A stretch of DNA of 61,874 nucleotides, counting the filler, from a bacterium (lineage in GTDB: Bacteria > JAMORN01), in the NCBI GenBank assembly GCA_027063545.1. It is 12 parts of 12 records of this genome, joined end to end, with 100 filler letters (N's around TTAATTAATTAA, not from the genome) between each part and the next. Parts side by side here need not be neighbours in the genome. Positions count along the whole stretch, not along the records: positions 1 to 16,896 come from JAMORN010000305.1; 11 more parts are not named here. One strand, written 5' to 3'. The translations under genes and the position numbers were made by a program. This document shows positions 1-58,590 of the stretch, piece by piece (within the stretch, counting starts at the first letter, position 1; every line of letters begins with the position of its first letter). The notes under the pieces are model-generated. The model saw only the letters and a list, made by a program, of their open reading frames with translations, was not told where the DNA came from and did not search any database.

Positions 1-190
1 TATCCAATAATTTTAATTTATCTTCTCTTTTTACTATAGGGGTATATAATAAAAAGAAAACAGGTTGATTTGTCTTGAAAAATTCCACCATCTCTCTTAA
101 AAGATTTAATCCTTTATCCACTTTATTTTTATCTTCTAATGCTTTATAAAAACCTAAAGCATATCTTTTTGCTATAAGATTTTTTTCCAT
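1..190 (-). CDS. atpH: F-ATP synthase subunit delta, N-terminal part (cut by window edge)
   Basis: Read manually: MEKNLIAKRYALGFYKAL...LLYTPIVKREDKLKLLD; AKRYA motif; follows atpF. Confidence 0.85.
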   Translation of the reverse strand, partial: MEKNLIAKRYALGFYKALEDKNKVDKGLNLLREMVEFFKTNQPVFFLLYTPIVKREDKLKLLD

Positions 191-719: not shown

Positions 720-995
<276 letters not shown>

Positions 996-1033: not shown

Positions 1034-1999
1034 TTACTTTACTACAAATATTAATATAAAAGCTATAACCAAAGCATATGTACTTGTAGATTGGGCTACA
1101 GCTTGTCCTAAAAGCATTGTTCTCATTACAACAGGTGTTGCTTCAGGATTCTCAGAAACACCTTTCGCTGCACCTTGAGCTGCAGAACCAGAACCAATTC
1201 CTGGTCCAATAGCACCTGCTCCCATTGCTATACCTGCAGATAACATCGCAACAAATCTTACTAAATCGTTACCTTTATCACCTATGAATAAAAGAATAAA
1301 AGATACCAATAAAGCAAAAATAGTAGGTGTTTGAGCTACAGCTTGTCCCAATAACATTATTTTTAATAAATTTCCACTCTCCTCTATTTTTTTACCCATC
1401 CCTTTTATAGCATCCTCTGCAGCCATTCCTGTTCCTATACCTGAGCCTATAGAACCTAATCCTATAGAAATTCCTGCTCCAAGTAGTGCGCCTATAGTAA
1501 TTAAATCTCCTCCTGGAAAACTCATAAAAATTAATATTAAAGAGACAACTAATGCAAAAATTATAGGTGTTTGAACAACTGCCTGCCCAACAAGCATATT
1601 TGCTAAAAATGTATTATTAAAACGTGGTTGTCTTGCCGCAGCTTCACAAGCCGCCTTTCCTGCTAGTCCTGCTCCATAACCAGAACCTAATCCTCCAAGA
1701 CCTATAGCAATACCTGCTGATAGATAAGCAAATGCTTGATTTAAATCTGAAGGTGTTCCTATAAATACCAATATTATAGCTATAACTAATGCAAATATAG
1801 AAGCAGAACCTGTACCTGCTTGTCCTATTAACATTGTTTTAAAAATTTCATTATTAGCTCCTGGTTGTATAGAGATTCCTTTTACCCCATCCTCTGCAGA
1901 AAAGCCCATACCTATACCAGAACCTAATCCTCCTAATCCTATAGCAATACCAGCTCCTAAAAATTTTAAAAAATTACCCCAATCTCCTACCTCTACCAT
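1034..1999 (-). CDS. Four-hairpin (8 TM) c-subunit paralog lacking the ion-binding Glu in all repeats
   Basis: Four repeats ending GQAGTGSASIF / GQAVVQTPIIF / GQAVAQTPTIF / GQAVAQSTSTY align to [11 protein letters not shown] of AtpE. Confidence 0.9.
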   Translation of the reverse strand: MVEVGDWGNFLKFLGAGIAIGLGGLGSGIGMGFSAEDGVKGISIQPGANNEIFKTMLIGQAGTGSASIFALVIAIILVFIGTPSDLNQAFAYLSAGIAIGLGGLGSGYGAGLAGKAACEAAARQPRFNNTFLANMLVGQAVVQTPIIFALVVSLILIFMSFPGGDLITIGALLGAGISIGLGSIGSGIGTGMAAEDAIKGMGKKIEESGNLLKIMLLGQAVAQTPTIFALLVSFILLFIGDKGNDLVRFVAMLSAGIAMGAGAIGPGIGSGSAAQGAAKGVSENPEATPVVMRTMLLGQAVAQSTSTYALVIAFILIFVVK

Positions 2000-3377: not shown

Positions 3378-3749
3378 TTATTTGGTATTAAATGTTTTTT
3401 CTACTTCCTGAGGATTTTCTATCATCTTACAAAAACCATTAAAAATAGCCTTTTCATTAATTATTAATTCTCTAGTTTTTAAATCACCAATTAAGACAGC
3501 CTTTTCTTCTATTTCCATTTTGTTTTTTATTGTAACATTTCCTGTTATCTTTCCTGCTAAAACACAATTATCAGCTTCTACTTCTGCTTCTATAATACCT
3601 GTTTTTCCTATAGTTAAATTTCCTTTTACAACCAATTTTCCTTTAAGTCTTCCATCTATTCTTATATTTCCTTCTACTTCTATAGTTCCTTCTATAAAAG
3701 TCTTTTCAGCAATTAATGTATACTCCATATTATTATTTTTTATTGGCAT
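3378..3749 (-). CDS. Bactofilin (polymer-forming cytoskeletal protein)
   Basis: TLIAEKTFIEGTI-EGNIRIDGRLKG-LTIGKTGIIEAEV beta-helix repeats. Confidence 0.9.
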   Translation of the reverse strand: MPIKNNNMEYTLIAEKTFIEGTIEVEGNIRIDGRLKGKLVVKGNLTIGKTGIIEAEVEADNCVLAGKITGNVTIKNKMEIEEKAVLIGDLKTRELIINEKAIFNGFCKMIENPQEVEKTFNTK

Positions 3750-12224: not shown

Positions 12225-12473
12225 TTATGGTAGATCAATTCCGCCTTTAGAGTAAGGATTACATCTTAAAACTCTCCAAGTAGTTTTATATGTTGCTTTG
12301 AAAATATTATACTTTTTATACGATTCTATAGCATAATCAGAACATGTAGGATAATATCTACAATGAAAAGGTGTATAGGGTGATATAAATTTTTTATAAA
12401 ATTGTATTATTTTTATTATTAAATTCTTTATTAATTTTTCTATAGTTTTCAATAAGGAAATTATATACTTCAT
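12225..12473 (-). CDS. yidD: Membrane protein insertion efficiency factor YidD
   Basis: CRYYPTCSDYA, RVLRCNP. Confidence 0.95.
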   Translation of the reverse strand: MKYIISLLKTIEKLIKNLIIKIIQFYKKFISPYTPFHCRYYPTCSDYAIESYKKYNIFKATYKTTWRVLRCNPYSKGGIDLP

Positions 12474-12819
12474 TTTTTACTCTATTAAAGTCTATATTTT
12501 TATTTGTATTATTTTTCACCAAAACAAATATTGTATAATTCTTATAAAACTCTTTTAGATCTTTATTATTATAAAAAATTTCTCTAAAACTCTCTTTTAT
12601 TAATCTTTTTATTCTATTTCTATAAACAGATTTAGCAAATTTTCTTTTTACAATAATACCTATTATAGGTAAATTTAATAAATAATTATATTCTTTTTCT
12701 TTTAAAAATGTCAAAATATCTTTTTTAAGTAAATATATAATAAAGTTTTGAGTATAAATTTTTTTTGATTTTTTTATATAATTAAAAAATCTCTTATTTG
12801 CTGTGTAAAAATATTTCAT
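12394..12819 (-). CDS. rnpA: Ribonuclease P protein component
   Basis: KSVYRNRIKRLIKE (RNR motif); between rpmH and yidD. Confidence 0.85.
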   Translation of the reverse strand: MKYFYTANKRFFNYIKKSKKIYTQNFIIYLLKKDILTFLKEKEYNYLLNLPIIGIIVKRKFAKSVYRNRIKRLIKESFREIFYNNKDLKEFYKNYTIFVLVKNNTNKNIDFNRVKNEVYNFLIENYRKINKEFNNKNNTIL

Positions 12820-12832
12820 TAAGGTTTTAATA

Positions 12833-12970
12833 CTAAACTGTTGTTAATCTTTTTCTACCCTTTCTTCTTCTTCTATTTATAACTTCTCTACCAGATTTTG
12901 TCCTCATTCTTGCTAAAAATCCATGTTTTCTTTTTGCTTTCTTTATATGTGGTTGATATGTCCTCTTCAT
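12833..12970 (-). CDS. rpmH: 50S ribosomal protein L34 (absent from ORF track)
   Basis: Read manually: [54 protein letters not shown]. Confidence 0.97.
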
Positions 12971-13064
12971 ATATCCCTCCCTTAAATTTATTTTTTTTAT
13001 TTTTTATTTAAAAAAGTTATTTTTATGTATAAAAATAATAAAAATATTAAATTTTTACAAGAAT

Positions 13065-14117
13065 ATGTATTATTATTTAGAATCTCAAGTATTAGAGCAT
13101 TATACATTTGATAATTTAATAGAAGGTAGAACTAATTCTGCAGCTATTATTGCGGGAAAAACAATAGTTAATGATTTAAAAAAACAGATTCCATATAATC
13201 CTCTTCTTATTGTTGGAGATTATGGTTCAGGAAAAACTCATATATTAAATGCTATAGGAAATTATGCTAAACAAAAATATAAAAATATAAATATCGCTTA
13301 TATAAGAGGAGATTTATTTATTAATGATGTTATAGAAGCTATAAAAAATAAAGAAATAGAAAAATTAGAAAATTTTTATAAAAAATTAGATATACTACTT
13401 TTTGATGATATTCATAAATTTATAGAGCAAAATACATCTTTAGCTCAAGATATTTTCTTTAATATATATGAATATTTATACAACAAAAATAAAAAAATAG
13501 TTATAAGTTCTCTTTATGATATAAATAAATTAAAAGAAGGATTAAAAGATAGAATTATAAGTAGATTATCTTCAGGACTTATTATAAAAATAGGTGATTT
13601 TGATTATGAAATAATAATGGCTATTTTAAGAAAAAAAACTGAAAAAATAGAAATATCCAATGATATTTTAGATTATATAATAAAAACTTTAAAAACAAAT
13701 AATATTAGAAACTATGAAGGTATAATAAATAAAATTATAAGTTTTTCTATAGGAACAAAAAAAGAAATAAATCTTGAATTAGTAAAAGATATAATAAATA
13801 AAGATAAGACTATTAAAAAAATTTCAAATATTATAACACCTGATGAAATTATAGATGTTGTTAGTAAGTTTTTTAAGATTAATAAAAGATTAATAATAGA
13901 AAAAAATAGAAGAAAAGAAGTAATAATACCAAGAAAAATTGCTATATATTTATCAACAGAATTAACAAATTATTCTTTAGAATCTATAGGTAAATTTTTT
14001 AATAGAGACCATGCGACAGTAATCTATTCTAGAGATGAAATCAAAAAGTTAATAAATACTGATGAAACTATTAAAGAAATTGTTAATAAACTAAAAAAAA
14101 TGTTAATAACTGATTAA
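13065..14117 (+). CDS. dnaA: Replication initiator DnaA, domains III-IV only
   Basis: YTFDN, GDYGSGKTH, LLFDDIH, SRLSSGL, NRDHATVIYS; only 350 aa. Confidence 0.9.
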   Translation: MYYYLESQVLEHYTFDNLIEGRTNSAAIIAGKTIVNDLKKQIPYNPLLIVGDYGSGKTHILNAIGNYAKQKYKNINIAYIRGDLFINDVIEAIKNKEIEKLENFYKKLDILLFDDIHKFIEQNTSLAQDIFFNIYEYLYNKNKKIVISSLYDINKLKEGLKDRIISRLSSGLIIKIGDFDYEIIMAILRKKTEKIEISNDILDYIIKTLKTNNIRNYEGIINKIISFSIGTKKEINLELVKDIINKDKTIKKISNIITPDEIIDVVSKFFKINKRLIIEKNRRKEVIIPRKIAIYLSTELTNYSLESIGKFFNRDHATVIYSRDEIKKLINTDETIKEIVNKLKKMLITD

Positions 14118-14272
14118 ATAAAATCAAAAATTATTAACAAATTATTTGTGATATAGTTTCACTAAAAAAATCTTAATAACTTTTATTAAATAATAATTAA
14201 ATAATTTTTAATAAGATAAAAATTTTTATTAACAAATTGACAATTATTTATTATTAAAATTAATATAAATAA
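14047..14272. other. Probable oriC: variant DnaA boxes plus DnaA-trio tract
   Basis: TTATTAACA at 14081 and 14101 (minus strand) and 14131 and 14226 (plus strand); near-match at 14047; TTATTAACAAATTGACA followed by TAT TAT TAA AAT TAA TAT. Confidence 0.7.
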
Positions 14273-14404
14273 ATGTTAAAGAATATTATAAGAATTAGGT
14301 ATAAAAATAAAGTCACTTTATTTAATAGAATAAAGTTTTTGATAGATAAAAATTTTTTATTTATTTTTTTATAGCCAACAAAAAGAAAAAAGGAGTATGA
14401 TAAT

Positions 14405-15532
14405 ATGAAAGTAAGAACTAATATAGGTATTTTAAAAGATTTAATAGATAATGCTCTTCCTATTATTAATCAAAAAGCTCAAATTTTAATTCTTCATAAT
14501 TTTTTAATAAGAGCTAAAAATTCTAGATTAGAAATAGTAGCTACAGATTTAGATATTTCAATTATAGCATATAAAGATGTAGAAGTTTTAGAAGAAGGAG
14601 AAATATTAATAAATGCAAAAAAGTTTGCTGAAATAGTTAAAAATTTTGAAGATGAAGATGAGATTGAGATAATCTCAGATGAAAATTTAAAATTTGAACT
14701 TATAATAGGTAATAGTAAGTTTTCTTTAGTAGGTATAAATTCAGAAGAATTTCCTAAGGTACAATATCCAGAGGATATAAATTATATTATTTCTGTAAAG
14801 GGATTAGCTCTTAATTTTATTATTGATTATACATTATTTGCTGTAAGTAAAGACATAGGAATTTTAACAGGTATAAATTTTGAAATACATAAAGATTTTA
14901 TTAGAATGGTTGGAACAGATAGTCATAAATTAGGTCTTGCTGATTATAAGGATTTAATTGATATAAAAAAACAAGATGAGGATTTTCCTTTAAAATTTGT
15001 TGTTCCAAATAAGGTTGTAAAACACTTATCAGATACAATAGAAGATGATTGGGATATAAATATTGCTTTTAAAGATAATTTTTTAATATTTAATTATGAA
15101 AATATATTATTATCAACAAGATTATTAGAAGGTACATATCCAAATTATGAAGCAGTAATACCAGAAGATAATCAAAATAGTGCAATAATAGAAAGAAAAA
15201 CTTTTATGAATATTATAAAGAGATCTTTAAGTACTTCTGAATCTGGACAATATAAAATTATATTTAAATTTGATTCTACTTTAGAAGTTTATTCTTATGA
15301 TACAGAATTAGGAGCAGAATCTAAACAAGAGCTTTCAATTTCTTATGAAGGTGAGCCTATAGAGATTGCTTTTAATGGAAATTATCTACTTGATATATTA
15401 AAACATATAAAAACAGATGATGTTGAATTTAAAATTGGAGGTTCTTTATCTCCTACTTTAATAAAGCCACTACCACAATCAGAATCAGAAAATGTTATAC
15501 TACTATTAATGCCACTTAGAATAAAAAGTTAA
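14405..15532 (+). CDS. dnaN: DNA polymerase III beta clamp
   Basis: ATDLD, GTDSHKL, YPNYEAVIP, IAFNGNYL, LMPLR. Confidence 0.95.
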   Translation: MKVRTNIGILKDLIDNALPIINQKAQILILHNFLIRAKNSRLEIVATDLDISIIAYKDVEVLEEGEILINAKKFAEIVKNFEDEDEIEIISDENLKFELIIGNSKFSLVGINSEEFPKVQYPEDINYIISVKGLALNFIIDYTLFAVSKDIGILTGINFEIHKDFIRMVGTDSHKLGLADYKDLIDIKKQDEDFPLKFVVPNKVVKHLSDTIEDDWDINIAFKDNFLIFNYENILLSTRLLEGTYPNYEAVIPEDNQNSAIIERKTFMNIIKRSLSTSESGQYKIIFKFDSTLEVYSYDTELGAESKQELSISYEGEPIEIAFNGNYLLDILKHIKTDDVEFKIGGSLSPTLIKPLPQSESENVILLLMPLRIKS

Positions 15533-16575
15533 TGATTAAAGATATTTTAATAAAAAATTTTAAAATAATTAAAAATAAAAAATTTAATTTTCATCCTAAT
15601 TTAAATTTAATTATTGGTCCAAATGGTTCTGGAAAGACCTCTCTTTTAGAGGCTATTTATTATTCTTTTTATTTCAGGTCATTTTCTATATATAATTCTA
15701 AATTTTTAATAAATAAATACGAAGATTTTTTATTTATAGAGACAAATTTTATTAAGGAGGGTTTAGATAATAATATTAAAGTTTATTATGATGGAATAAA
15801 GAAGAATATTTTATTAAATGATAATAATATAAAAAAGATCTCAGAAGTTTATTCTATTTTAAATGTTATAGTTTTCTCCCATTATGATTTTAGTATTATT
15901 GAGAATAAATTATATAGAGATAGGTTTTTTTATAAACTTATCTCATTTTATAGAATGGATTTTTTAGATTATCTTAATAAGTATAAGAAAATATTAAATC
16001 AAAAAAGAATTCTATTAAAAAGTGATAATTTGGATATTAAATTATTGGATATATATAATAAAAATTTAATAGAATTATCAGAAAAGTTATCAAAAATTAA
16101 AGAACAGTTTCTTAAAGAATATATTAATATATTTAATAGTTTATTAAAAAAATTAGAAATAAAAAAAAAATTTAGTATAGATATTTATAAATTCAAAAAT
16201 AAAGAATATTGGGAGGAACTTTTTAGTAGTATAAAAGAAAAAGAGATTGAAGATAAAAAAATATTAGAAGGCTTTCATAAAGAGGATATAAATTTTTATA
16301 AGGATAATATCATTTTAAAAAACTACTCTTCAGAAGGAGAAAAGAAACTTTTTATTTTTTTATTAAAATATTCTGAATTTTTATTATATAAAAAAAAGAC
16401 AAATAATATAATATTTTTATTTGATGATATTATTTCATTATATGATGAAAAAAATAGAAATTTAGTTTTTAATTTAATAAAAGAAATAGATAATTATCAA
16501 AAATTTATAACAAGTACAGAATTAATAGATTATTTTAATAGTAAAAAGGATAAAAATATAATAAATTTAACTTAA
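15532..16575 (+). CDS. recF: RecF (divergent)
   Basis: GPNGSGKTSLLEAI, SEGEKK signature, LFDD Walker B; follows dnaN. Confidence 0.85.
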   Translation: MIKDILIKNFKIIKNKKFNFHPNLNLIIGPNGSGKTSLLEAIYYSFYFRSFSIYNSKFLINKYEDFLFIETNFIKEGLDNNIKVYYDGIKKNILLNDNNIKKISEVYSILNVIVFSHYDFSIIENKLYRDRFFYKLISFYRMDFLDYLNKYKKILNQKRILLKSDNLDIKLLDIYNKNLIELSEKLSKIKEQFLKEYINIFNSLLKKLEIKKKFSIDIYKFKNKEYWEELFSSIKEKEIEDKKILEGFHKEDINFYKDNIILKNYSSEGEKKLFIFLLKYSEFLLYKKKTNNIIFLFDDIISLYDEKNRNLVFNLIKEIDNYQKFITSTELIDYFNSKKDKNIINLT

Positions 16576-19976: not shown

Positions 19977-20985
19977 GTTTTCAATACTAAATATTGCAAA
20001 AAGTGGTGATCATATAGTATCCTCTGCTACCCTTTATGGAGGGACATATACGTTATTTAAATATACACTTGGGAAATTGGGAATAGAAACAACTTTTGTT
20101 GATCCTGATAACATTGAAAACTTCGAAAAAGCAATCAAAGAAAATACAAAAGCGATTTATGTGGAAACCTTAGCAAATCCTAAAAATAATTTTATTGATA
20201 TAGAAAAAGTTGCTAAAATAGCTCATAAATATAAAATACCTTTAATTGTTGATAACACTGTTACAACCGCATATTTAGTTAAGCCTATTGAATGGGGTGC
20301 TGATATAGTTGTTTATTCTGCCACTAAATTTATAGGTGGACATGGAACTGCTATTGGCGGTGTTGTAATTGACTCAGGAATGTTTGATTGGGAAAACTCA
20401 GGGAAATTTCCTTGTCTCACAGAACCAGACCAATCCTATCATGGACTTATTTATACTAAAGAATTTGGAAATAGTGCTTATATTACAAAACTTAGAGTTC
20501 AATTATTAAGAGATATAGGAGCATGCCTTTCTCCTTTTAATGCTTTTCTATTTTTAATGGGGCTTGAAACCCTTCATTTAAGAATGGAAAGACACTGCGA
20601 GAATGCTTTAAAAGTAGCAAAAGCCTTAAAAGAACATCCTAAAGTGGCTTGGGTGAATTATCCGGGTCTTGAGGATCATCCTTATCATAATATTGCTAAG
20701 AAATATCTAAAAGATAAATTTGGAGCTATTTTAGGATTTGGAGTAAAAGGTGGATATGAAAGTGCTAAAAAAGTTATAGAAAATGTAAGACTTGCTTCTC
20801 ATCTTGCAAACATTGGAGATAGTAAAACATTAATAATACATCCTGCTTCAACAACACATCAGCAATTATCAAAAGAGGAAAGACTAAAAGCAGGGGTTAG
20901 TGATGATTTTATTAGACTTGTTGTTGGGATAGAGAACGTTAATGATATAATTGAAGATTTATATCAAGCCTTGGATAAAGTTTAA
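19977..20985 (+). CDS. metY: O-acetylhomoserine/O-acetylserine sulfhydrylase (5' truncated)
   Basis: [20 protein letters not shown] (PLP Lys), LANIGD, HPASTTH. Confidence 0.9.
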
Positions 20986-28792: not shown

Positions 28793-29029
28793 CCTAATAA
28801 AAATTGGTGGTGGCATAGGACATGTACAAATAGGACTTCCAACACTTCCTAATGGGTCTGGCATTATTCCAGGAGTTGCTGTAACTCCTGCTATTCTTAA
28901 AGGAAACATACAAGCATAACATAAAGAAGTAATTGTTACAATTTGCTGAGATGGATTTGCTGCACATAAAGCTTTAGCTTTTTGAGTAAAAGAAAATAAT
29001 AAAAAAATAGAGATAATTATTTTTTTCAT
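28793..29029 (-). CDS. traU: TraU-family conjugal transfer protein, N-terminal part
   Basis: Signal peptide; LCYACMFPLRIAG and PICTCP motifs. Confidence 0.8.
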
Positions 29030-31554
29030 TCTCTTTCATCCTTAATCAATTGTTTTATGGCTTCTATATGAGTCAGTCCTTGTTCTTTATATTTTGCTAT
29101 TTTAGCTTTATCTTTAGGGTCAGTGGTTGTTACATAATAGAAAAATTTATTCATAATAAGTCTATTAGGAACTTTATACTCATCTGGAGTAATAATAAAA
29201 ATTTCTGAATATTGTCCTTTATTTGTATGAATAGATTTTAAAATATTTTCTTCTACTTCATCTAAATTAAATACACCACTCTTAATTAACATATTTATAC
29301 TTGTTTCTGTTTGTGTTAAGAAAAATTTCCAAGGACTATTAGCAATAATAACTTTACCAGCACTACTAAGTCCCCCACTTTTGGGGTCAAAAATATCATC
29401 AAATCCTTGTGTAGCAAGAATAATACTACCATCGTATTTTCTTGCTCTTCTATAAGCTTGTTCAATAAAATCATCCATTCTTGGATTTTTACCTAAAAAT
29501 CTATGTGCTTCATCAAGTATAATTTGAATTCTACTTTTTCTTTTACTTCTTGATGAATACATCATTTGGTTTATATGATAAACTAACATCATAATAATAG
29601 GGTCTCTAATATCAGGATGTTCACTCATCTCTTTAAATTCTACTGCTATAAATTCTTTTTGTATATTAAATTCATTTGGACCTTCAAAAAATTTTCCATA
29701 AATACCATCTCTACAAAATGCTCCAAGTTGAGTAGCAAAATCTTGAAACCTATTATCACTTTCTTGTCTTAATCTATCTCTAATATGGGTAATTTCCATT
29801 TTATTACCCCATTCTTCATAAATTTCAAGTAAAACTTCTTGTATTCTAGTTTTAATAAGTTTTTCTTCTTCTTCTGCCCTTTTTTCATTTTTATTACTTC
29901 CTAACATATAAATAAAGTCTGAAAAATAAAACAAATCATCTTTTAACTCTTTTATATCTTCTAAATCACTAAAAGGATTAAAACTAATTGGTCTGTCTGG
30001 ATTAAGTGCTACATATTGAGCATTAACAGCTTGACATAATCCTTCAAACGAATTATCATAATCTAATACAAAAACTCTATCACCTCTTGCATATGAATTA
30101 ACAGCTATTGTTTGTAAAAATACCGATTTTCCAGCACCTGAAGTAGCAACTACATATCCATTAAAAGATTTATTACTTGCAAATAAATCAAACATAGCAA
30201 ACTGACTTCTTCTTGTAATTAAAGGAAAATTATTACCTGAACCTTTAAAATCTGCTTCTAGTGGAGCATATTGGGCTATCTGTTTTGGAAACATACTTCT
30301 ATATTTTCTTGTAGTATCAAATAAATATTCTTCATTTATTCCCATAGGAAGACTTGCTAAAAAATTTAAATGATGAATACCAAGTGATTCAACTAACTTA
30401 ATTGCCTGATATTCTCCTCCTTTACCCCAATAAGACTTTACAATTTGTGCATTTCTCTCTGCTTCTTCAAAAGAAGAACCTGCTACTAGAATATTCAAAT
30501 CCATAGCAAATAAAGTTTCTTTACCATTCTCAATTCTATCTAATATCTCTATACTCTCATCTTGGGCTGCAGCAAATTTTCTAAAAATATCTCTTCTCCA
30601 TTGTTGAGTAGAAATAATTTGATGATTTCTTTTTACTGTATTGGTTTCAGATTTTGGTAACTTACATACTGACAAAGTTACAAAAAAATTATCTTGGAAT
30701 TGATTGATTTCTGGTCTTTTTGAAATATAATCTCCCAATTTTTCTCCAAAATCTACTATAGATGAATATGTTTGAAGAGATTGAGGAACTAAACTAATCC
30801 AAGTTTTATTATTAAACTCTATACAAGTATCTTTTACTAAAATTTTTGTATTAGGAGAAATAATTTGCCTATTTAAAGCCATATTCTCATCATAAAGTGG
30901 AATATCTCTAACTGAATGAGAGCCATTTAATAATTCATATAAAATAGGTTTTAATTTGTTTGCTTCTAATTCTTCTGGAGAAAAAGCATTACTTTCAAGT
31001 ATATTTCTTAACTGATTTTTAAAAATTTTAACTTGTTCTTTATTATCTCCTTTACAACTTATTATTAGTCTATAATTTTTAATTCTTGTATTACTCATTT
31101 TATTTATAGGTTTCTCTGTTTTTTCATAATACATTTCAGCTGTAGCATTTATCATCTCTTGTAATAATTCTTCTTCTCTAATTAAATGTTCTTTTCTCCA
31201 ATTCTCAACCATATTAACTATATTTTTGCTACCAAATAACATAAATTGTAAAAACACCCCATCTGGTAATTTTGATAAAATTTCTTCTACTGCTGTAGCT
31301 GTATTAGTTCCCATTCTAATTCTTGGAGCACATTCAAAAATAGCTCCATAGCTATTATCATTATTGATATACAATTTATTTTTATCATCATATAATCTAT
31401 ATGGTAAATAATCTCCTAATCTATATCTTTTAAAAATTGAATTAAACACATTTACAGGTAAAGAAGCAATCTCTTTTATAGGTTCTTTAATATTTTCTTT
31501 TGTAGATTTAAATATATTGATATTATCTAACAAATTATTAAAATTAAATCTCAT
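29026..31554 (-). CDS. traC: F-type T4SS ATPase TraC (VirB4 family)
   Basis: ATSGAGKS Walker A, SFNPF, IILDEAHRFL, RRARKYDGS, ATQ. Confidence 0.9.
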   Translation of the reverse strand: MRFNFNNLLDNINIFKSTKENIKEPIKEIASLPVNVFNSIFKRYRLGDYLPYRLYDDKNKLYINNDNSYGAIFECAPRIRMGTNTATAVEEILSKLPDGVFLQFMLFGSKNIVNMVENWRKEHLIREEELLQEMINATAEMYYEKTEKPINKMSNTRIKNYRLIISCKGDNKEQVKIFKNQLRNILESNAFSPEELEANKLKPILYELLNGSHSVRDIPLYDENMALNRQIISPNTKILVKDTCIEFNNKTWISLVPQSLQTYSSIVDFGEKLGDYISKRPEINQFQDNFFVTLSVCKLPKSETNTVKRNHQIISTQQWRRDIFRKFAAAQDESIEILDRIENGKETLFAMDLNILVAGSSFEEAERNAQIVKSYWGKGGEYQAIKLVESLGIHHLNFLASLPMGINEEYLFDTTRKYRSMFPKQIAQYAPLEADFKGSGNNFPLITRRSQFAMFDLFASNKSFNGYVVATSGAGKSVFLQTIAVNSYARGDRVFVLDYDNSFEGLCQAVNAQYVALNPDRPISFNPFSDLEDIKELKDDLFYFSDFIYMLGSNKNEKRAEEEEKLIKTRIQEVLLEIYEEWGNKMEITHIRDRLRQESDNRFQDFATQLGAFCRDGIYGKFFEGPNEFNIQKEFIAVEFKEMSEHPDIRDPIIMMLVYHINQMMYSSRSKRKSRIQIILDEAHRFLGKNPRMDDFIEQAYRRARKYDGSIILATQGFDDIFDPKSGGLSSAGKVIIANSPWKFFLTQTETSINMLIKSGVFNLDEVEENILKSIHTNKGQYSEIFIITPDEYKVPNRLIMNKFFYYVTTTDPKDKAKIAKYKEQGLTHIEAIKQLIKDERE

Positions 31555-32993: not shown

Positions 32994-34538
32994 TTATTGA
33001 ATAAGTTCTTTCGCTAAAGGTATTATTCCTTCTTCTCTAATTCTACTCACATCTAACTTTATATATCCATCATAGTAGTTAAAGTAATTCTTATATTGTT
33101 CATATTCTTCCATTCCTTTTTCTACTAATTCTGAAAAGTTATCTGTACTTCCCATAAGAGTTGTTTCTATTGCTGTTATACTTGTATGAGCAGAATCATT
33201 ATAAAATCCTACAAAAGCATGTCCAGGAATCAAGAAAATTATTGGATCAATACCTATATTTTCTAAAGCAGAAGCCCAAAGAAGGGTCCCATCTATACAG
33301 TTTGCTTCTCCTAACTCTAAAACTTCCTCTGGAAGTCTTATTCTTTGAGTGTTTTCATTAGGAAAACTTATGGTTGAAGAAGAATAGTTAATATCATAAG
33401 TTTTTAAAGCATTAAATATTGCTCTTGCCTGTAAATAAACATCATTTACAACGTGAACTGTAGCTTTAATAGAATTATCAAGACTTGTAATTGTAAAAGC
33501 ATTAGGATCTCCATTATTTCCTAAATCTTTTAAGCTTCCTTTTTCTGTGGAACCTAAATAATCATTAGCATCATAATCAATATCATAAACTTTGATGTAA
33601 ATATAATCATCTTTATTAAATAAATGATAATTTATAGAGAGAGAAATTGGAAAATAATAAGAATTAACATCAGAATATTCCCCAGAACTCTTTACAAAGT
33701 GACCATTAATATATACATCAAAATCTATATCAGCATTTCCTCCAAAAGGATCCTGATTATAATAAGGTGCTTTATCTAAAGTGATATATGTAATATAATA
33801 TACATCTATTCCTTGGTATCCTAGGAGAATGTTCTTTGGATGATAATTAACTGCTTTGCTTATTAATTCTTCTACTTTATCATTATGAGGCATTACAAAT
33901 TTTACTAAATATTTTGTCATATCATGAGTTACTCTCTCAGCATCTTTTAGAGAAAATGTAAAGTAATCCTTTGCTAATAGTTGAATTTTATATGTATTAT
34001 TTATTACATATCTTTCTACTCCCGAGGTATCTATGTAAGATACCATAACATCATAAAGTGCTGTTTTTGTTTCTTCTAGATTTTCAATGGTAGTTTCATC
34101 AAATATTGGATTAAAATATAATAAAGTAGAAGAAGAAGGTTGTAAAGTTAAAGTCTTTTTTTATCCTAATGAATATCCTTTAATTTCAGAATAAACAGAA
34201 AAATTAAGAGGAATATTTGAATTATTTATTATTTCTATTTTTAAAGTTTTAAACTCATCAGTAGATATTCCATTTAATAAATAAGGTGGTATTTGCTCCG
34301 CTATGGATACATCGCCAGACACATTAATAAATACTTTATTCTCTTCATCATTCTCAGAACTATTACTAAGAGTGTTTTCTTCTTGATTATCTTCTTTATT
34401 ATTATCATCATAATAAAAACTAGAATCTTGAGAGTAATCTGATTCTTCCCCAAAACTTGTAGGTGAATCACTTGAACATTGGAATAATCCTAACCCTATA
34501 ATTAATACAGTAATACCCCATTTCCATAATTTTTTCAT
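32994..34538 (-). pseudogene. Transglutaminase-like lipoprotein with C2-like insert, split by an in-frame TAA at 34161-34163
   Basis: The 125-aa and 350-aa ORFs are in one frame (GYSLG*KKTLTLQP...DVMVSY); lipobox LFQC; ANCIDG and PGHAFVG. Confidence 0.75.
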
Positions 34539-53887: not shown

Positions 53888-56244
53888 TCATTTTAAATTA
53901 TTTCTTAAAAATCTACCCATTTTTGCATCTTCACCAAGTATATGGGCAATAAGCCATTCAACAACTTCTCTTTGAAGTGTATCTACAAACTCATCGGTTA
54001 TACCTGTCTTTTTGAATACTTCAATATAGCCTTTAACTTTATTTACAAATTCATCGTGTACTTTTTTATGATGTTCATATCCAGGATAATTATATTCTTG
54101 CATATATGTTTCTTCTGTAGAGAAATGCTCTACTGTATAATTTGCTAAAAAGTTCAATATCTCTTCAATCACTTCATTTGCAGCGTCCTGCTCAATAGCA
54201 TTAAGAAGTTTATTTGTAGTTTTTACTAAGGCCTTATGTTGCTCATCTACAATCTCAATACCCGTATCATATTCTTTTTTCCATGTTAAAGGTCCATCAT
54301 CAGGAAATTGATCTAATTTTGAAGTTATAGTAGAATCTGATTTTATAGTTTCACTTGTTACAATCTCATCTTTATAATTTTCCCTAATCCATTTTCCAAT
54401 CTTTGTATCCATACCTAATATATGATTTATAAGCCATTGACCTATTTCTCTATAAAACGTTTCTACATATTCTTGAGATAATCCTTCTCTCTTAAATTGC
54501 TCTACTAAATTTTGAGTTTTTTCTATGAACTTTTTATGAACTACCTTATGGGTTGAGTACTCGGGATAATTATATTTTTGCTGAATAATTTCTTCATCTG
54601 AGAAGTGTTTAACAACATAATCACTTAAAAAGTTTAATATCTTTTCCATATCTTCCTTTGTTGCCCCTCTATTAACTGAATCTATAAATTTATTAATAGA
54701 ATCAACAAGCTGTTTATGCTCCTCATCTATAAGTTGAACACCTGTTTCATATTCTTTTTTCCATTGTATTTTATCAAATTTAACATCAAGTTTTACAATT
54801 CTTTCTCCACTATCAGTTTTCTCAGATTCTGACTTGTCTATCTTAAATTTATCAATTAAAGAAGATAAATTCTCTGCAACTTTTTTTAACTTAGTAACTT
54901 CTTTTGCAACATTATCTTCGCCTAATATTAAAGCATCGCTTGATATTACTAAATCTTTTAGTTCTTCTGTGTTTTTCTCTCCTATTTTCTTTAATTCATC
55001 AATAGATTTTTGAAGTTCTCCAATTTCTAAAAGAATAGAATCTAAACTGGTTTTTAAAGATTTACTATTTTTTATTATTTCAAGAAGTGTGTTATTTATA
55101 TTTCTAGAAGATTCTGCGATATTATTAATTTCATTAGCGATTTCCTCTACATTTGATTTCCCAGTTTGAGACTCTAACACTAGTTTTTCAAAGCTCTTAG
55201 ATAAATCATCAATACCTTCTGTAACTGAAGCAACATTCTTAATAATTTTATTTACTATATCTGTAATCTCTTTCATATGATTTTCTGTTGTAGCTGAAAG
55301 TTCTTTAATTTCCTCGGCTATTACCATAAAACCTTTTCCTGCCTGTCCTGCATGTGAAGCTTCTATAGAAGCATTCATCGCAAGTATTGATGTCTCTTTT
55401 GATATTTCTGAAATTATTTCAACAACATTTTGAATTTGATTAGAAGATTCTTTTATGCCTTTTACTATATCTACAACTTTCTCAAGAACTTCTTTATTTT
55501 CTTCTGAAAATTTTGCTAACTTATCTATGACTTTTGCTGTATCCTGGGCTTTTTTGTTAGTTTCATCTAAAGTAGTTACCATCTGCTCATTTTGTGTTCC
55601 AATAGATTCTATTTCTACTGTTAAATTTGAAATAAATGTAGAAAATTTATTTATATTATCCGCTACTTTTGTCATAAAATCTGCAATATTTGTCAATTTT
55701 TCAAATTCTGATTCAATATTAGAACTAATTGCTTTCATCATATCCACACTTTCTTTTACCTTCTCTTTGTTTGTATTAACTGTAGAATCAACAAAAGAAA
55801 ATGTATTCGTAAGTTTTTTTACAGCTTCTTTTATATTAAAGACTATCTCTGATAATTCTTTCTTCATTTGTATCAAAGTCTTTGAAGTATGTTCAAAATC
55901 TAGAGGTAATTCTGGAATATCAACAGTTAAATTACCCTCACCTATCTTTTTTAATCTATCATTTAAAACTTTTATTGGTATATCCAATTTATTAGTTAAA
56001 AATTTATTAAATATTAAAAATACTATTCCTCCCCCTACTAGCATTAAAAAGATAAATGTTATAAATATTTCATATATTACCTGCAATGCTTTCTTTTTTA
56101 TATTGTCTGTTAATATATATACACCTTGTATCTCACCATTAAAGTCTTTTATAAAAGAATAAATAATTAAATGTCCATTTATTAATAATTCTCCACTTTC
56201 CCCTTTATTTTCAAGTTCAGATATTTTTTCTTTAAAGAATCTTT
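53888..56244 (-). CDS. Methyl-accepting chemotaxis protein with two C-terminal hemerythrin domains (5' truncated)
   Basis: Cache-like IKDFNGEIQG, TM, HAMP, LAMNASIEASHAGQAGKGF; two sets of H/HxxxE/HxxxH/HxxxxD. Confidence 0.92.
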
Positions 56245-57033: not shown

Positions 57034-58590
57034 TCAAAATTTATAACTATTAGAAATGCTATAAATTCTACTTTTATAAAAATCTCTCCATACAGGATCC
57101 TTCTCTTCTTCTATCTTTTTTTTATAATACTCTAACAAATCTTTTTCAGTAAAGAAACACTCACTTAATATTATAAGATAGCGTCCTTCAGGTAAATTTC
57201 TTAAATTATCATACCAAAAATATAGTTTATCTTTATCGTATTTAATACTTTTATAATCACTCTCTAATAAAGAAAATAAAATTTCATAGTCTATACTTAT
57301 ACTTTTTAATTTATCTATATTTTTAAAAAAAGTCAATGTATCATAAGTTAAATAACTATAAAATCCAGTATATAATATATTATATAAATTAGAAGGTGTT
57401 TCTCTTATTATTTTAGCTATTAAAAGAAACTGTTTAAAATAATCTGTATAAAAAAATTCTTTTTTTAGTCTTATAGAATACTTATAAAATTTTTCTGTTG
57501 AATCTGTCAAAAATAAAATAGCTATCCAGTAATAAAAATAGGCCTTATCGTTTTTAGATAACCTTGATACATCAATCCAATAAAAAAAACTATCTATTTC
57601 ATTTTTTATTAAAGAAATTGAAAAATAATATTTGTATAAATTAAAATCATATTCTTCTTTATTTATAACATTTAGATACTTTATAACCTCTGAATATTCT
57701 CTATTAAAGAGAAGATCTTTAAGATATATATGCAAAAACATTTTTTTTTCTTTTATCCCCAAGTTATTTAAATACAAAATTATTTTATCATATCTATTTT
57801 GGGAAAGATCTAAATAGAAAACTTCATTAAGAGATAACTTGTTTTTTATCTTATCACTTAAAATACTATCCATATATGAGAAAAACTTAAAATTACCAAT
57901 ATCTTTATTTTCTTTATTTATAACAAATTTTATAAAATTCAAATCCTCTTTATGAGACTTTATAAAAGTTTTCAAATATATATCATCAAAAAATAATTTA
58001 ATATAAAAATATCTAACCATTAAATAAGAAGTTTCATCATGATTACTTGTAAAATATTTATTCCTATTAAATTTAATTTCTTTTTCTTTTATCTTATATA
58101 GAAGATCTATAAGAAAATCTATATCATAATTTAAATATGAATAATATTCTATTTTATTTAAAAGTATATCTATTTTATTTTGGTATAATAGAGCCTCTAA
58201 GTACTGCTTCCAAAATAATGAAGGGTCATGATTTATATCCTGATGTAAAAGTATTAAATATTCAATAGATTGCCAATCATACTCTGCTTTCAAAACATTT
58301 ATATAAGTTTCAAGCTCTAGTTTATTTAATTTTACACTATTAATAAATCTTTTAGATAGTTTACCTTTTGCTATAGGCCAAAGTTTAGAAAAATATACTT
58401 GAAATCCTAAAGTCTTTTTATTTATACTTTCATAAAATTTTTCAAATTTTATATATTCTCCTCTAGATAAAACTATAGAATCAGCAAAAAAATTTCCTTC
58501 AAATCTCAAATAATATGCTTCTATATTACTAAAAAACAAAATAATAAAGATAAATATGATTCCTAAATTATATACCAAAACTTTTCTCAT
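57034..58590 (-). CDS. Hypothetical exported helical (TPR-like) protein
   Basis: 518-aa ORF with N-terminal signal/TM. Confidence 0.55.
   Translation of the reverse strand: MRKVLVYNLGIIFIFIILFFSNIEAYYLRFEGNFFADSIVLSRGEYIKFEKFYESINKKTLGFQVYFSKLWPIAKGKLSKRFINSVKLNKLELETYINVLKAEYDWQSIEYLILLHQDINHDPSLFWKQYLEALLYQNKIDILLNKIEYYSYLNYDIDFLIDLLYKIKEKEIKFNRNKYFTSNHDETSYLMVRYFYIKLFFDDIYLKTFIKSHKEDLNFIKFVINKENKDIGNFKFFSYMDSILSDKIKNKLSLNEVFYLDLSQNRYDKIILYLNNLGIKEKKMFLHIYLKDLLFNREYSEVIKYLNVINKEEYDFNLYKYYFSISLIKNEIDSFFYWIDVSRLSKNDKAYFYYWIAILFLTDSTEKFYKYSIRLKKEFFYTDYFKQFLLIAKIIRETPSNLYNILYTGFYSYLTYDTLTFFKNIDKLKSISIDYEILFSLLESDYKSIKYDKDKLYFWYDNLRNLPEGRYLIILSECFFTEKDLLEYYKKKIEEEKDPVWRDFYKSRIYSISNSYKF

Follow-up and report, generated by a model that had tools for sequence, protein, structure and literature searches.

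The stretch of DNA analysed here (hereafter referred to as the window) comprises 61,874 nucleotides, filler between its 12 joined parts included, from assembly GCA_027063545.1 of a bacterium of the JAMORN01 lineage, and its first part carries genes for the membrane sector of an F-type ATP synthase. An atpI-like gene, atpB, a gene encoding four fused subunit c hairpins in one polypeptide (hereafter referred to as c4), atpE, atpF and the start of atpH are all found on the minus strand (Table 1), making c4 a member of an F-type operon, the F1 genes of which lie outside the window. The start codon of c4 overlaps the stop codon of atpB (TAATG), with the sequence GAGGA located six bases upstream of the c4 start, while atpE possesses a separate, strong Shine-Dalgarno sequence (AAGGAGG, 8 nt ahead of its ATG). 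The key residues of AtpE, as obtained from its alignment to the c4 hairpins, are E33, Q62, V64, E66, S67, T68 and Y71.

Table 1 Features of the atp locus and hairpins of c4 (positions along the window; aa, amino acids; ORF, open reading frame; OSCP, oligomycin sensitivity-conferring protein)
Feature	Position	Strand	Basis or remark
c4, fusion of four c hairpins of the F type, all ion-binding positions devoid of a carboxylate	1034..1999	-	ATG ORF, 321 aa
Hairpin 1 of c4 (aa 1-80): M31 and G64 instead of both carboxylates; S65, A66, F69	1760..1999	-	alignment to AtpE
Hairpin 2 of c4 (aa 86-160): A110, Q143-T144-P145, F148; R-Q-P loop kept	1520..1744	-	alignment to AtpE
Hairpin 3 of c4 (aa 166-240): T190, Q223-T224-P225, F228	1280..1504	-	alignment to AtpE
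Hairpin 4 of c4 (aa 246-321): S270, V301, Q303, S304, T305, Y308; predicted docking face for AtpE	1037..1264	-	
atpE, normal single-hairpin c, 86 aa, two-carboxylate Na+ motif	720..980	-	PF00137
atpB (subunit a), 299 aa	1999..2898	-	PF00119, E 9.3e-45
atpI-like gene, 145 aa	2935..3372	-	PF03899, E 1.8e-05, 25.6 bits against a cut-off of 25.1; no NCBIfam match
atpF (subunit b), 158 aa	205..681	-	PF00430, E 1.6e-25
atpH start (delta/OSCP), 63 codons, cut by the window end	2..190	-	PF00213, E 3.1e-4, 21.3 bits, just below the cut-off of 22.3

In Pfam, c4 is matched by ATP-synt_C (PF00137) in four separate stretches (E 3.7e-51; 171.7 bits against a cut-off of 24), and the F0 subunit C models of NCBIfam likewise match in four stretches, with equivalog models scoring above their own cut-offs. 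A V-type proteolipid was considered as well and is ruled out by the best scores of the F0 subunit C models, by V-type K models staying far under their cut-offs (e.g., 81.7 compared with 211) and by the F-type neighbours. Upon alignment of the individual hairpins to AtpE, the position of E66 is occupied by G64, Q143, Q223 and Q303 in hairpins 1 to 4, respectively, and that of E33 by M31, A110, T190 and S270. Thus, the mid-position carboxylate (Glu or Asp) in the outer helix of F-type subunit c is missing from all four hairpins, while the glycine-rich inner helix and the profile match of an F-type subunit c are present. The residues V301, S304, T305 and Y308 are retained in hairpin 4 only, and the position of the Tyr is taken by Phe in hairpins 1 to 3. 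An earlier interpretation of this DNA (hereafter the sequence-only reading) had described a 321-aa ORF of four c hairpins between atpB and atpE, the outer-helix series G, Q, Q, Q and the inner-helix series M, A, T, S, a V-x-x-S-T-x-x-Y motif solely in hairpin 4, and a normal Na+ c subunit next to it. All of these elements are confirmed by the four PF00137 stretches together with the neighbour profiles, by the alignment of each residue to AtpE, and by the two-carboxylate Na+-type motif of AtpE.

Among themselves, the hairpins of c4 are only 41-47% identical and hairpin 4 shares 60% identity with AtpE, so that a mis-assembled repeat is unlikely. Moreover, pieces of c4 were found with 0 differences in contigs of two more hydrothermal-vent metagenome runs beyond the possible source run, and a metagenome scan for c4 relatives returned one locus (L081) of 100% identity; judged from these data, c4 does not appear to be an assembly artefact. 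Its clade consists of eight sequences, namely c4 itself plus P0005-7 and P0122-125 at 71-75% identity, which have four hairpins each and likewise lack both carboxylates in hairpin 1. The disappearance of all carboxylates is what would speak for a decaying, functionless duplicate of a c gene. This explanation, however, is already contradicted by the conservation data and has to be regarded as highly improbable. The frame of c4 is unbroken and does not differ between three metagenome runs, and c4 is 71-75% identical to relatives whose MnmG proteins reach only about 60%, as seen for c4 and P0007 (73%) compared with MnmG and P0130 (60%), with P0007 and P0130, each encoded on a contig of 33,766 bp, apparently stemming from the same genome. 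Conservation is also even across the hairpins, all four being 68-77% identical to those of six clade relatives (68-73% for hairpin 1). In a 40-sequence alignment (A2), the packing glycines of the inner helices are invariant in all four hairpins, and so are R123, Q143 and T144 as well as S304, T305 and Y308 of hairpin 4, in line with the conservation that the sequence-only reading had proposed to look for in the latter three residues. Finally, the AlphaFold2 (AF2) model of c4, calculated with an alignment of 40 relatives as input, displays long helices and is very confident (predicted local distance difference test, pLDDT, 96.4; predicted template modelling score, pTM, 0.92).

Relatives of c4 are numerous. 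A clustered-protein search covering 5.8 billion proteins yielded 1924 matches at E <= 1e-3 among the 8000 candidates scored, with lengths grouping near 320, 404 and 487 aa, and when 1.84 billion representatives were searched exhaustively with HMMER, 1305 matches had an E value <= 1e-3, 333 of them <= 1e-10 and 86 <= 1e-30. Proteins were cut into hairpins by profile and read at the seven key columns, which resulted in 330 proteins with 2-6 hairpins and complete columns from 426 distinct sequences; this sample represents the best matches to the c4 query, and counts derived from it are descriptive only. A positional grammar is apparent in this set. First hairpins usually carry both carboxylates, with Ala/Ser and Phe replacing Thr and Tyr (E..E-S-A..F in 134 of the 330), middle hairpins read Q-T-P..F, and the commonest states of the last hairpin are Q-S-T..Y (153/330) and E-S-T..Y (73/330). 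At least one carboxylate hairpin is found in 310 of the 330 proteins, one or two full sites being kept by most, while the remaining 20 zero-site proteins are spread over several sequence groups. The uniqueness of a zero-site multi-hairpin c implied by the sequence-only reading is therefore not upheld, as 12 of the 330 are zero-site proteins from outside the c4 clade: one with four hairpins (P0262), six with three and five with two, three of the latter (P0321, P0348 and P0371) probably being fragments. Of the substitutions of Glu by Gln or Gly, the one in hairpin 1 is common to the eight sequences of the c4 clade but is not general in the wider family, the first hairpin of which usually keeps both carboxylates. 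Among the 146 four-hairpin proteins, 40 have a single carboxylate hairpin and 9 have none. Based on these sequences, zero-site forms appear to be rare but not unique, and c4 is best described as a zero-site form that has arisen within a large family, the subunit c proteins with 2-6 hairpins.

Two further groups were encountered in the same searches. A second large family of four-hairpin proteins (P0279-P0393, about 315-321 aa), roughly 30% identical to c4, has Gln in hairpin 2, the other three hairpins carrying carboxylates (that of hairpin 4 often being Asp); three carboxylate hairpins were found in 54 of the four-hairpin proteins counted. In addition, giant c proteins of 968 aa (P0273), 1139 aa (P0291) and 784 aa (P0367) contain 13, 15 and 10 hairpins, respectively, nearly all of which carry Glu.

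Regarding the origin of the four hairpins, the sequence-only reading had noted a likeness between hairpins 1 and 3 and had derived from it a duplication of a two-hairpin unit. The shared motif is real but local, and a special overall resemblance does not exist, since hairpins 1 and 3 are 44% identical and hairpins 2 and 3 47%. Also the two-plus-two duplication itself is rejected: the pairwise identities given above do not follow a pattern of 1 = 3 and 2 = 4, and hairpins of different proteins group by position in a tree of 87 hairpins (78 columns; quick search with support from the Shimodaira-Hasegawa-like approximate likelihood ratio test, SH-aLRT, only, and many unresolved forks). In this tree, 21 of 22 first hairpins fall into one cluster (SH-aLRT 91) and last hairpins cluster with single-hairpin c subunits (SH-aLRT 95). 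Hairpin 1 of c4 is placed among the first hairpins, within a weakly supported sub-cluster (89) of carboxylate-less ones, and hairpin 4 groups with last hairpins and single c subunits.

The arrangement of a multi-hairpin c gene followed by a normal one is not restricted to the window. A scan of one genome per prokaryotic species revealed at least 580 confirmed c4 relatives, the best 80 loci of which were examined. These loci belong to Desulfobacterales (including the cultured Desulfosarcina variabilis and Desulfatibacillum alkenivorans), Desulfarculales, Latescibacterota, Cloacimonadota, Planctomycetota, Verrucomicrobiota and one metagenome-assembled genome (MAG) of the Nitrospinaceae, with identities to c4 of 52% at most throughout. 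In 78 of the 80 loci, a single-hairpin c gene directly follows the multi-hairpin c gene, the latter encoding 3, 4, 5 or 6 hairpins. The exceptions are L067, which ends inside the fused gene at a contig end, and L002, an orphan second copy. Key columns of the single c read E-Q-V-E-S-T-Y in 75 of 76 complete cases (L073 has Q in first place; two more are cut by the locus end), and in 25 loci from several phyla this partner is 68-79% identical to AtpE of the window. Upstream, atpB is present in 78 of the 80 loci, and atpF is located downstream in most. Even the three-hairpin zero-site genes of L025 and L074 show the same arrangement with a single c. One MAG contains two four-hairpin c genes, one in full atpB-c-c-atpF context (L042), the other being the orphan L002 (6001-6972), near which atpB, a single c and atpF were not detected. 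A module of atpB, fused c, single c, atpF and again atpF, with no alpha or beta gene within the flank, occurs in Desulfobacterales. Together with the additional c genes of such genomes (see below), this module fits the remark of a 2014 survey on an ectopic second set of Fo genes in Desulfococcus oleovorans, in the available portion of which fused c genes are not mentioned (PMC4154653). Multiple atpE copies are, according to a paraphrase in PMC13343851, regular in genomes of Rnf-dependent anaerobes.

The best relative of c4 in the PDB is subunit c1 of Acetobacterium woodii (4BEM chain J), found by phmmer with an E value of 3.1e-25 over residues 152-318 and at rank 1 by Foldseek (E 3e-7); an F-type c with more than two hairpins was not among the PDB matches to c4 in either the sequence or the fold searches. 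The A. woodii ring has been described to contain nine single-hairpin c subunits (c2/3) and one c1 with one site (PMC9171764); a reduced stoichiometry has been reported for it, and the same gene pair exists in Clostridium aceticum (PMC7911925). As with c4, c1 (atpE1) of both organisms is a fused c encoded between atpB and a single-hairpin Na+-type c in an F-type operon, its last hairpin has Gln for Glu but keeps the S/T-T..Y ligands, its first hairpin lacks the Tyr, and a lower Na+/ATP ratio is expected. In the phmmer alignment, its two hairpins read E-T-S..F and Q-T-T..Y. In contrast to c4 with four hairpins and zero sites (M31, G64), however, c1 has two hairpins and a full Na+ site in hairpin 1, so that its blind arc covers one ring position instead of four. 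A further difference concerns the single-hairpin partner, as a Q....ET motif has been reported for c2 of A. woodii and C. aceticum (PMC7911925), whereas AtpE of the window carries E33 and E66. The latter two-carboxylate motif has been described for Fusobacterium nucleatum (PMC3692424). The c11 Na+ rings of this organism and of Ilyobacter tartaricus (3ZK1, 1YCE) are the next-best PDB matches, aligning with hairpin 4, and display an ion site spanning two adjacent hairpins; in contrast to a ring with c4, they are homomeric, consist of single hairpins and have one site per hairpin. Proteolipids of V/A-type enzymes (yeast and mammalian c, Enterococcus hirae NtpK, archaeal multi-hairpin c) resemble c4 in having fused hairpins and fewer sites than hairpins, and V-type structures superimpose on two hairpins with template modelling (TM) scores of 0.75-0.85 at only 24-26% identity. 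They are, however, encoded in V/A-type operons, and none of them is known to lack a carboxylate in its polypeptide altogether, while c4 is part of an F-type operon. Operon position and positional logic are shared by the other F-type c genes with 3-6 hairpins from Desulfobacterales, Latescibacterota, Cloacimonadota and others (40-52% identity), most of which, unlike the c4 clade, keep E33/E66 in hairpin 1. In the literature searched, no description of an F-type c with three or more hairpins was found, with Brandt and Mueller 2015 (Biol Chem 396:1031) and Matthies et al. 2014, which may list such genes, lying outside its coverage. A 2026 preprint, as far as its accessible text goes, regards F-type rings as predominantly built from single hairpins and mentions multi-hairpin proteins in passing (10.64898/2026.10.01.756066), and the accessible parts of PMC9408878, PMC7793690 and PMC5662883 contain nothing on multi-hairpin subunits.

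In the solved Na+ site, the carboxylates are provided by one hairpin, while Ser66 and Val63 come from the neighbouring subunit (PMC3692424). A corresponding dependence between neighbours is visible in the multi-hairpin proteins: where a non-terminal hairpin has the Tyr equivalent to Tyr71, the next hairpin bears a carboxylate in 63 of 65 pairs, and where this Tyr is missing, in 170 of 977 (Fisher p ~1e-41, a value inflated by relatedness, though the rule is still seen across different hairpin numbers). Many of these 170 pairs originate from the separate four-hairpin family of about 30% identity mentioned above. The rule explains why S-T..Y is kept in a last hairpin without its own carboxylate, as the last hairpin would precede the next subunit in a ring. 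Structure prediction points in the same direction. The predicted complex of c4 and AtpE reached an interaction prediction score from aligned errors (ipSAE) of 0.73 (0.70-0.74 in the individual runs) compared with 0.00 for the best of three controls, with at least 98% contact agreement between runs and a partner pLDDT of at least 87; in calibration, 58 of 80 solved complexes attained the ipSAE mark applied, as did 2 of 110 mismatched pairs, which is a rough guide here as own alignments were used. AtpE is placed on hairpin 4 (residues 246-320), its residues 33, 62 and 66 facing residues 298-309 of c4. The proposal of the sequence-only reading that c4 may be an ion-free four-hairpin sector of a hybrid ring, with hairpin 4 completing the site of the next AtpE, is supported by all computational tests run (family, synteny, Tyr/Thr covariation and predicted complex).

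Such docking would suit an assembly template or chaperone of the AtpE ring equally well. In this scenario, c4 would be a pre-formed arc that nucleates single hairpins, possibly together with AtpI, and would be absent from the mature rotor or present in sub-stoichiometric amounts. A protein without an ion site makes no contribution to transport, as would be the case for a template, and an atpI-like gene is located nearby, and the AtpI encoded by the operons of A. woodii and C. aceticum has been described as an assembly factor (PMC7911925). A template, however, would not require the S, T and Y ligands of hairpin 4 which are invariant in A2, nor would the family have any need for the carboxylate hairpin that almost all of its members keep, and c1, its homologue, forms a stable part of the ring in 4BEM. 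A template function is thus considered improbable. Instead, c4 is probably an ion-blind rotor-ring subunit of a Na+-coupled F1Fo ATPase, forming one hybrid ring with copies of AtpE.

In such a hybrid ring, the eight helices of c4 would fill four positions next to AtpE copies. Hairpin 4 would contribute V301, S304, T305 and Y308 to the Na+ site of the following AtpE, while hairpins 1-3 would form no site, leaving empty the pocket that hairpin 1 shares with the AtpE ahead of it and, likewise, the two internal interfaces. The ring would then have four Na+ sites fewer than hairpins, and less Na+ would be moved per ATP. Few copies of c4 per complex, perhaps one, are suggested by the overlap of its start codon with the atpB stop codon in comparison to the strong separate ribosome-binding site of atpE. 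For illustration, a ring of 11 hairpins (a size taken from the F. nucleatum and A. woodii rings) with one c4 would have 7 sites, translocate about 2.3 Na+ per ATP and contain a blind arc of about 131 degrees. F1 works in 120-degree steps. As the blind arc would exceed one step, ion flow could not provide torque across it in the direction of synthesis, whereas ATP hydrolysis could. With modest confidence, and as the least certain step of this proposal, the enzyme may therefore work better as an ATP-driven, low-ratio Na+ pump for a steep gradient than as a synthase, although ATP synthesis is on record for an enzyme containing a V-type c subunit (PMC9171764). A stricter version, possible but doubtful, would be that Na+ flow alone cannot complete a turn against the load of ATP synthesis when one contiguous blind arc is larger than a single step, which would leave either an obligate ATP-driven Na+ pump or an undescribed coupling trick, e.g., a fixed phase of blind arc and central stalk. 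In this version, the wider family with 0-2 sites on 2-6 fused hairpins in at least six phyla would constitute a natural 'gear ratio' series for F-type ATPases.

The same geometry could also be used for control. As a regulatory insert or brake, c4 would be present in some rings or under some conditions, and its blind arc, not being driven past subunit a by Na+ flow, would block or limit rotation in one direction, e.g., by the prevention of synthesis or a limit on the waste of ATP. Four adjacent blind hairpins exceed the 120-degree step if the ring has about 11 hairpins (F. nucleatum c11, PMC3692424; A. woodii 9+1, PMC9171764), and zero-site variants are recurrent in the family, as outlined above. 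Yet the fixed position of c4 in the operon, with overlapping start and stop codons, suggests constitutive co-expression rather than conditional use, and A. woodii tolerates its blind hairpin and still makes ATP (PMC9171764). Consequently, a brake is judged to be an unlikely function.

Several points weigh against the proposed role of c4. A long ion-blind arc is hard to square with ion-driven rotation, and c4 could be a ring member only at times. Ring membership is based on homology, covariation and a model that possibly recalls solved c-rings, and the complex score may reflect likeness to a solved complex of this kind rather than binding. The Na+/ATP figures are all hypothetical, as neither ring size nor copy number of c4 is fixed. 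Furthermore, in each of five other genomes with such operons (G001-G005), 1-3 additional c genes are located at other places.

How many ions an ATP costs is determined by the ion sites available in each turn of the rotor. To our knowledge, the A. woodii-type ring with its single blind hairpin is the only characterised bacterial F-type ring departing from the rule of one hairpin, one site. If c4 acts as proposed, a conserved zero-site four-hairpin subunit in the apparent main atp operon would extend this hybrid-rotor principle much further. Such a subunit would also make it possible to test directly to what extent a c-ring can dispense with ion-driven steps, and thereby to examine torque generation and storage, and could show whether low-ratio F-type enzymes are synthases or pumps. 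The present analysis adds the four-hairpin zero-site clade, the test for covariation between neighbouring hairpins and the docking side. The family is open to experiment via the two cultured Desulfobacterales named above, and for the operon of A. woodii, expression in E. coli has already been achieved (PMC9171764).

With respect to its genomic setting, the first part of the window represents a replication origin region, with rnpA, yidC, mnmE, mnmG, rsmG, parA and parB on one side, dnaA, dnaN and recF on the other, and a change in the sign of the GC skew near 12-15 kb. The atp operon lies a few kb from the rnpA-yidC/dnaA-dnaN region and is transcribed away from the origin, which fits a housekeeping operon. 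Within the origin region (12394-16575), rnpA is followed by a gap and then by dnaA, dnaN and recF. DnaA has only 350 aa, and its Pfam matches start with the ATPase domain at residue 11, the usual N-terminal domains seemingly being absent. The GC content is about 25%, and the DNA of the window was found in hydrothermal-vent metagenomes. The closest relatives of its MnmG share about 60% identity, further ones from many phyla about 50-53%. LpxB is encoded in the window and is indicative of an outer membrane. Neither rRNA or tRNA genes nor any other Rfam family were found in the window.

Directly upstream of atpI/atpB, a bactofilin gene (PF04519) is located at 3378-3749 (-). A bactofilin-atpB neighbourhood recurs in 8 of the 80 loci (L005, L008, L013, L015, L017, L019, L025 and L074), mostly outside the Desulfobacterota, and we know of no link between bactofilin and ATP synthase. 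Two ORFs at 32994-34046 (-; 350 aa) and 57034-58590 (-; 518 aa) are without a Pfam match at the thresholds applied. An ORF at 20077-20985 (+) with a TTG start codes for a pyridoxal phosphate (PLP) enzyme of Cys/Met metabolism of 302 aa, which matches positions 115-380 of the 381-position profile only and may be truncated N-terminally or have a missed upstream part. The 732-aa protein encoded at 53888-56086 (-) has a methyl-accepting chemotaxis signalling domain and, towards its C-terminus, a hemerythrin domain. Finally, an 842-aa TraC/VirB4-like conjugation ATPase (PF11130, PF19044), encoded at 29026-31554 (-), is suggestive of either an integrated conjugative element or a locus for type IV secretion.

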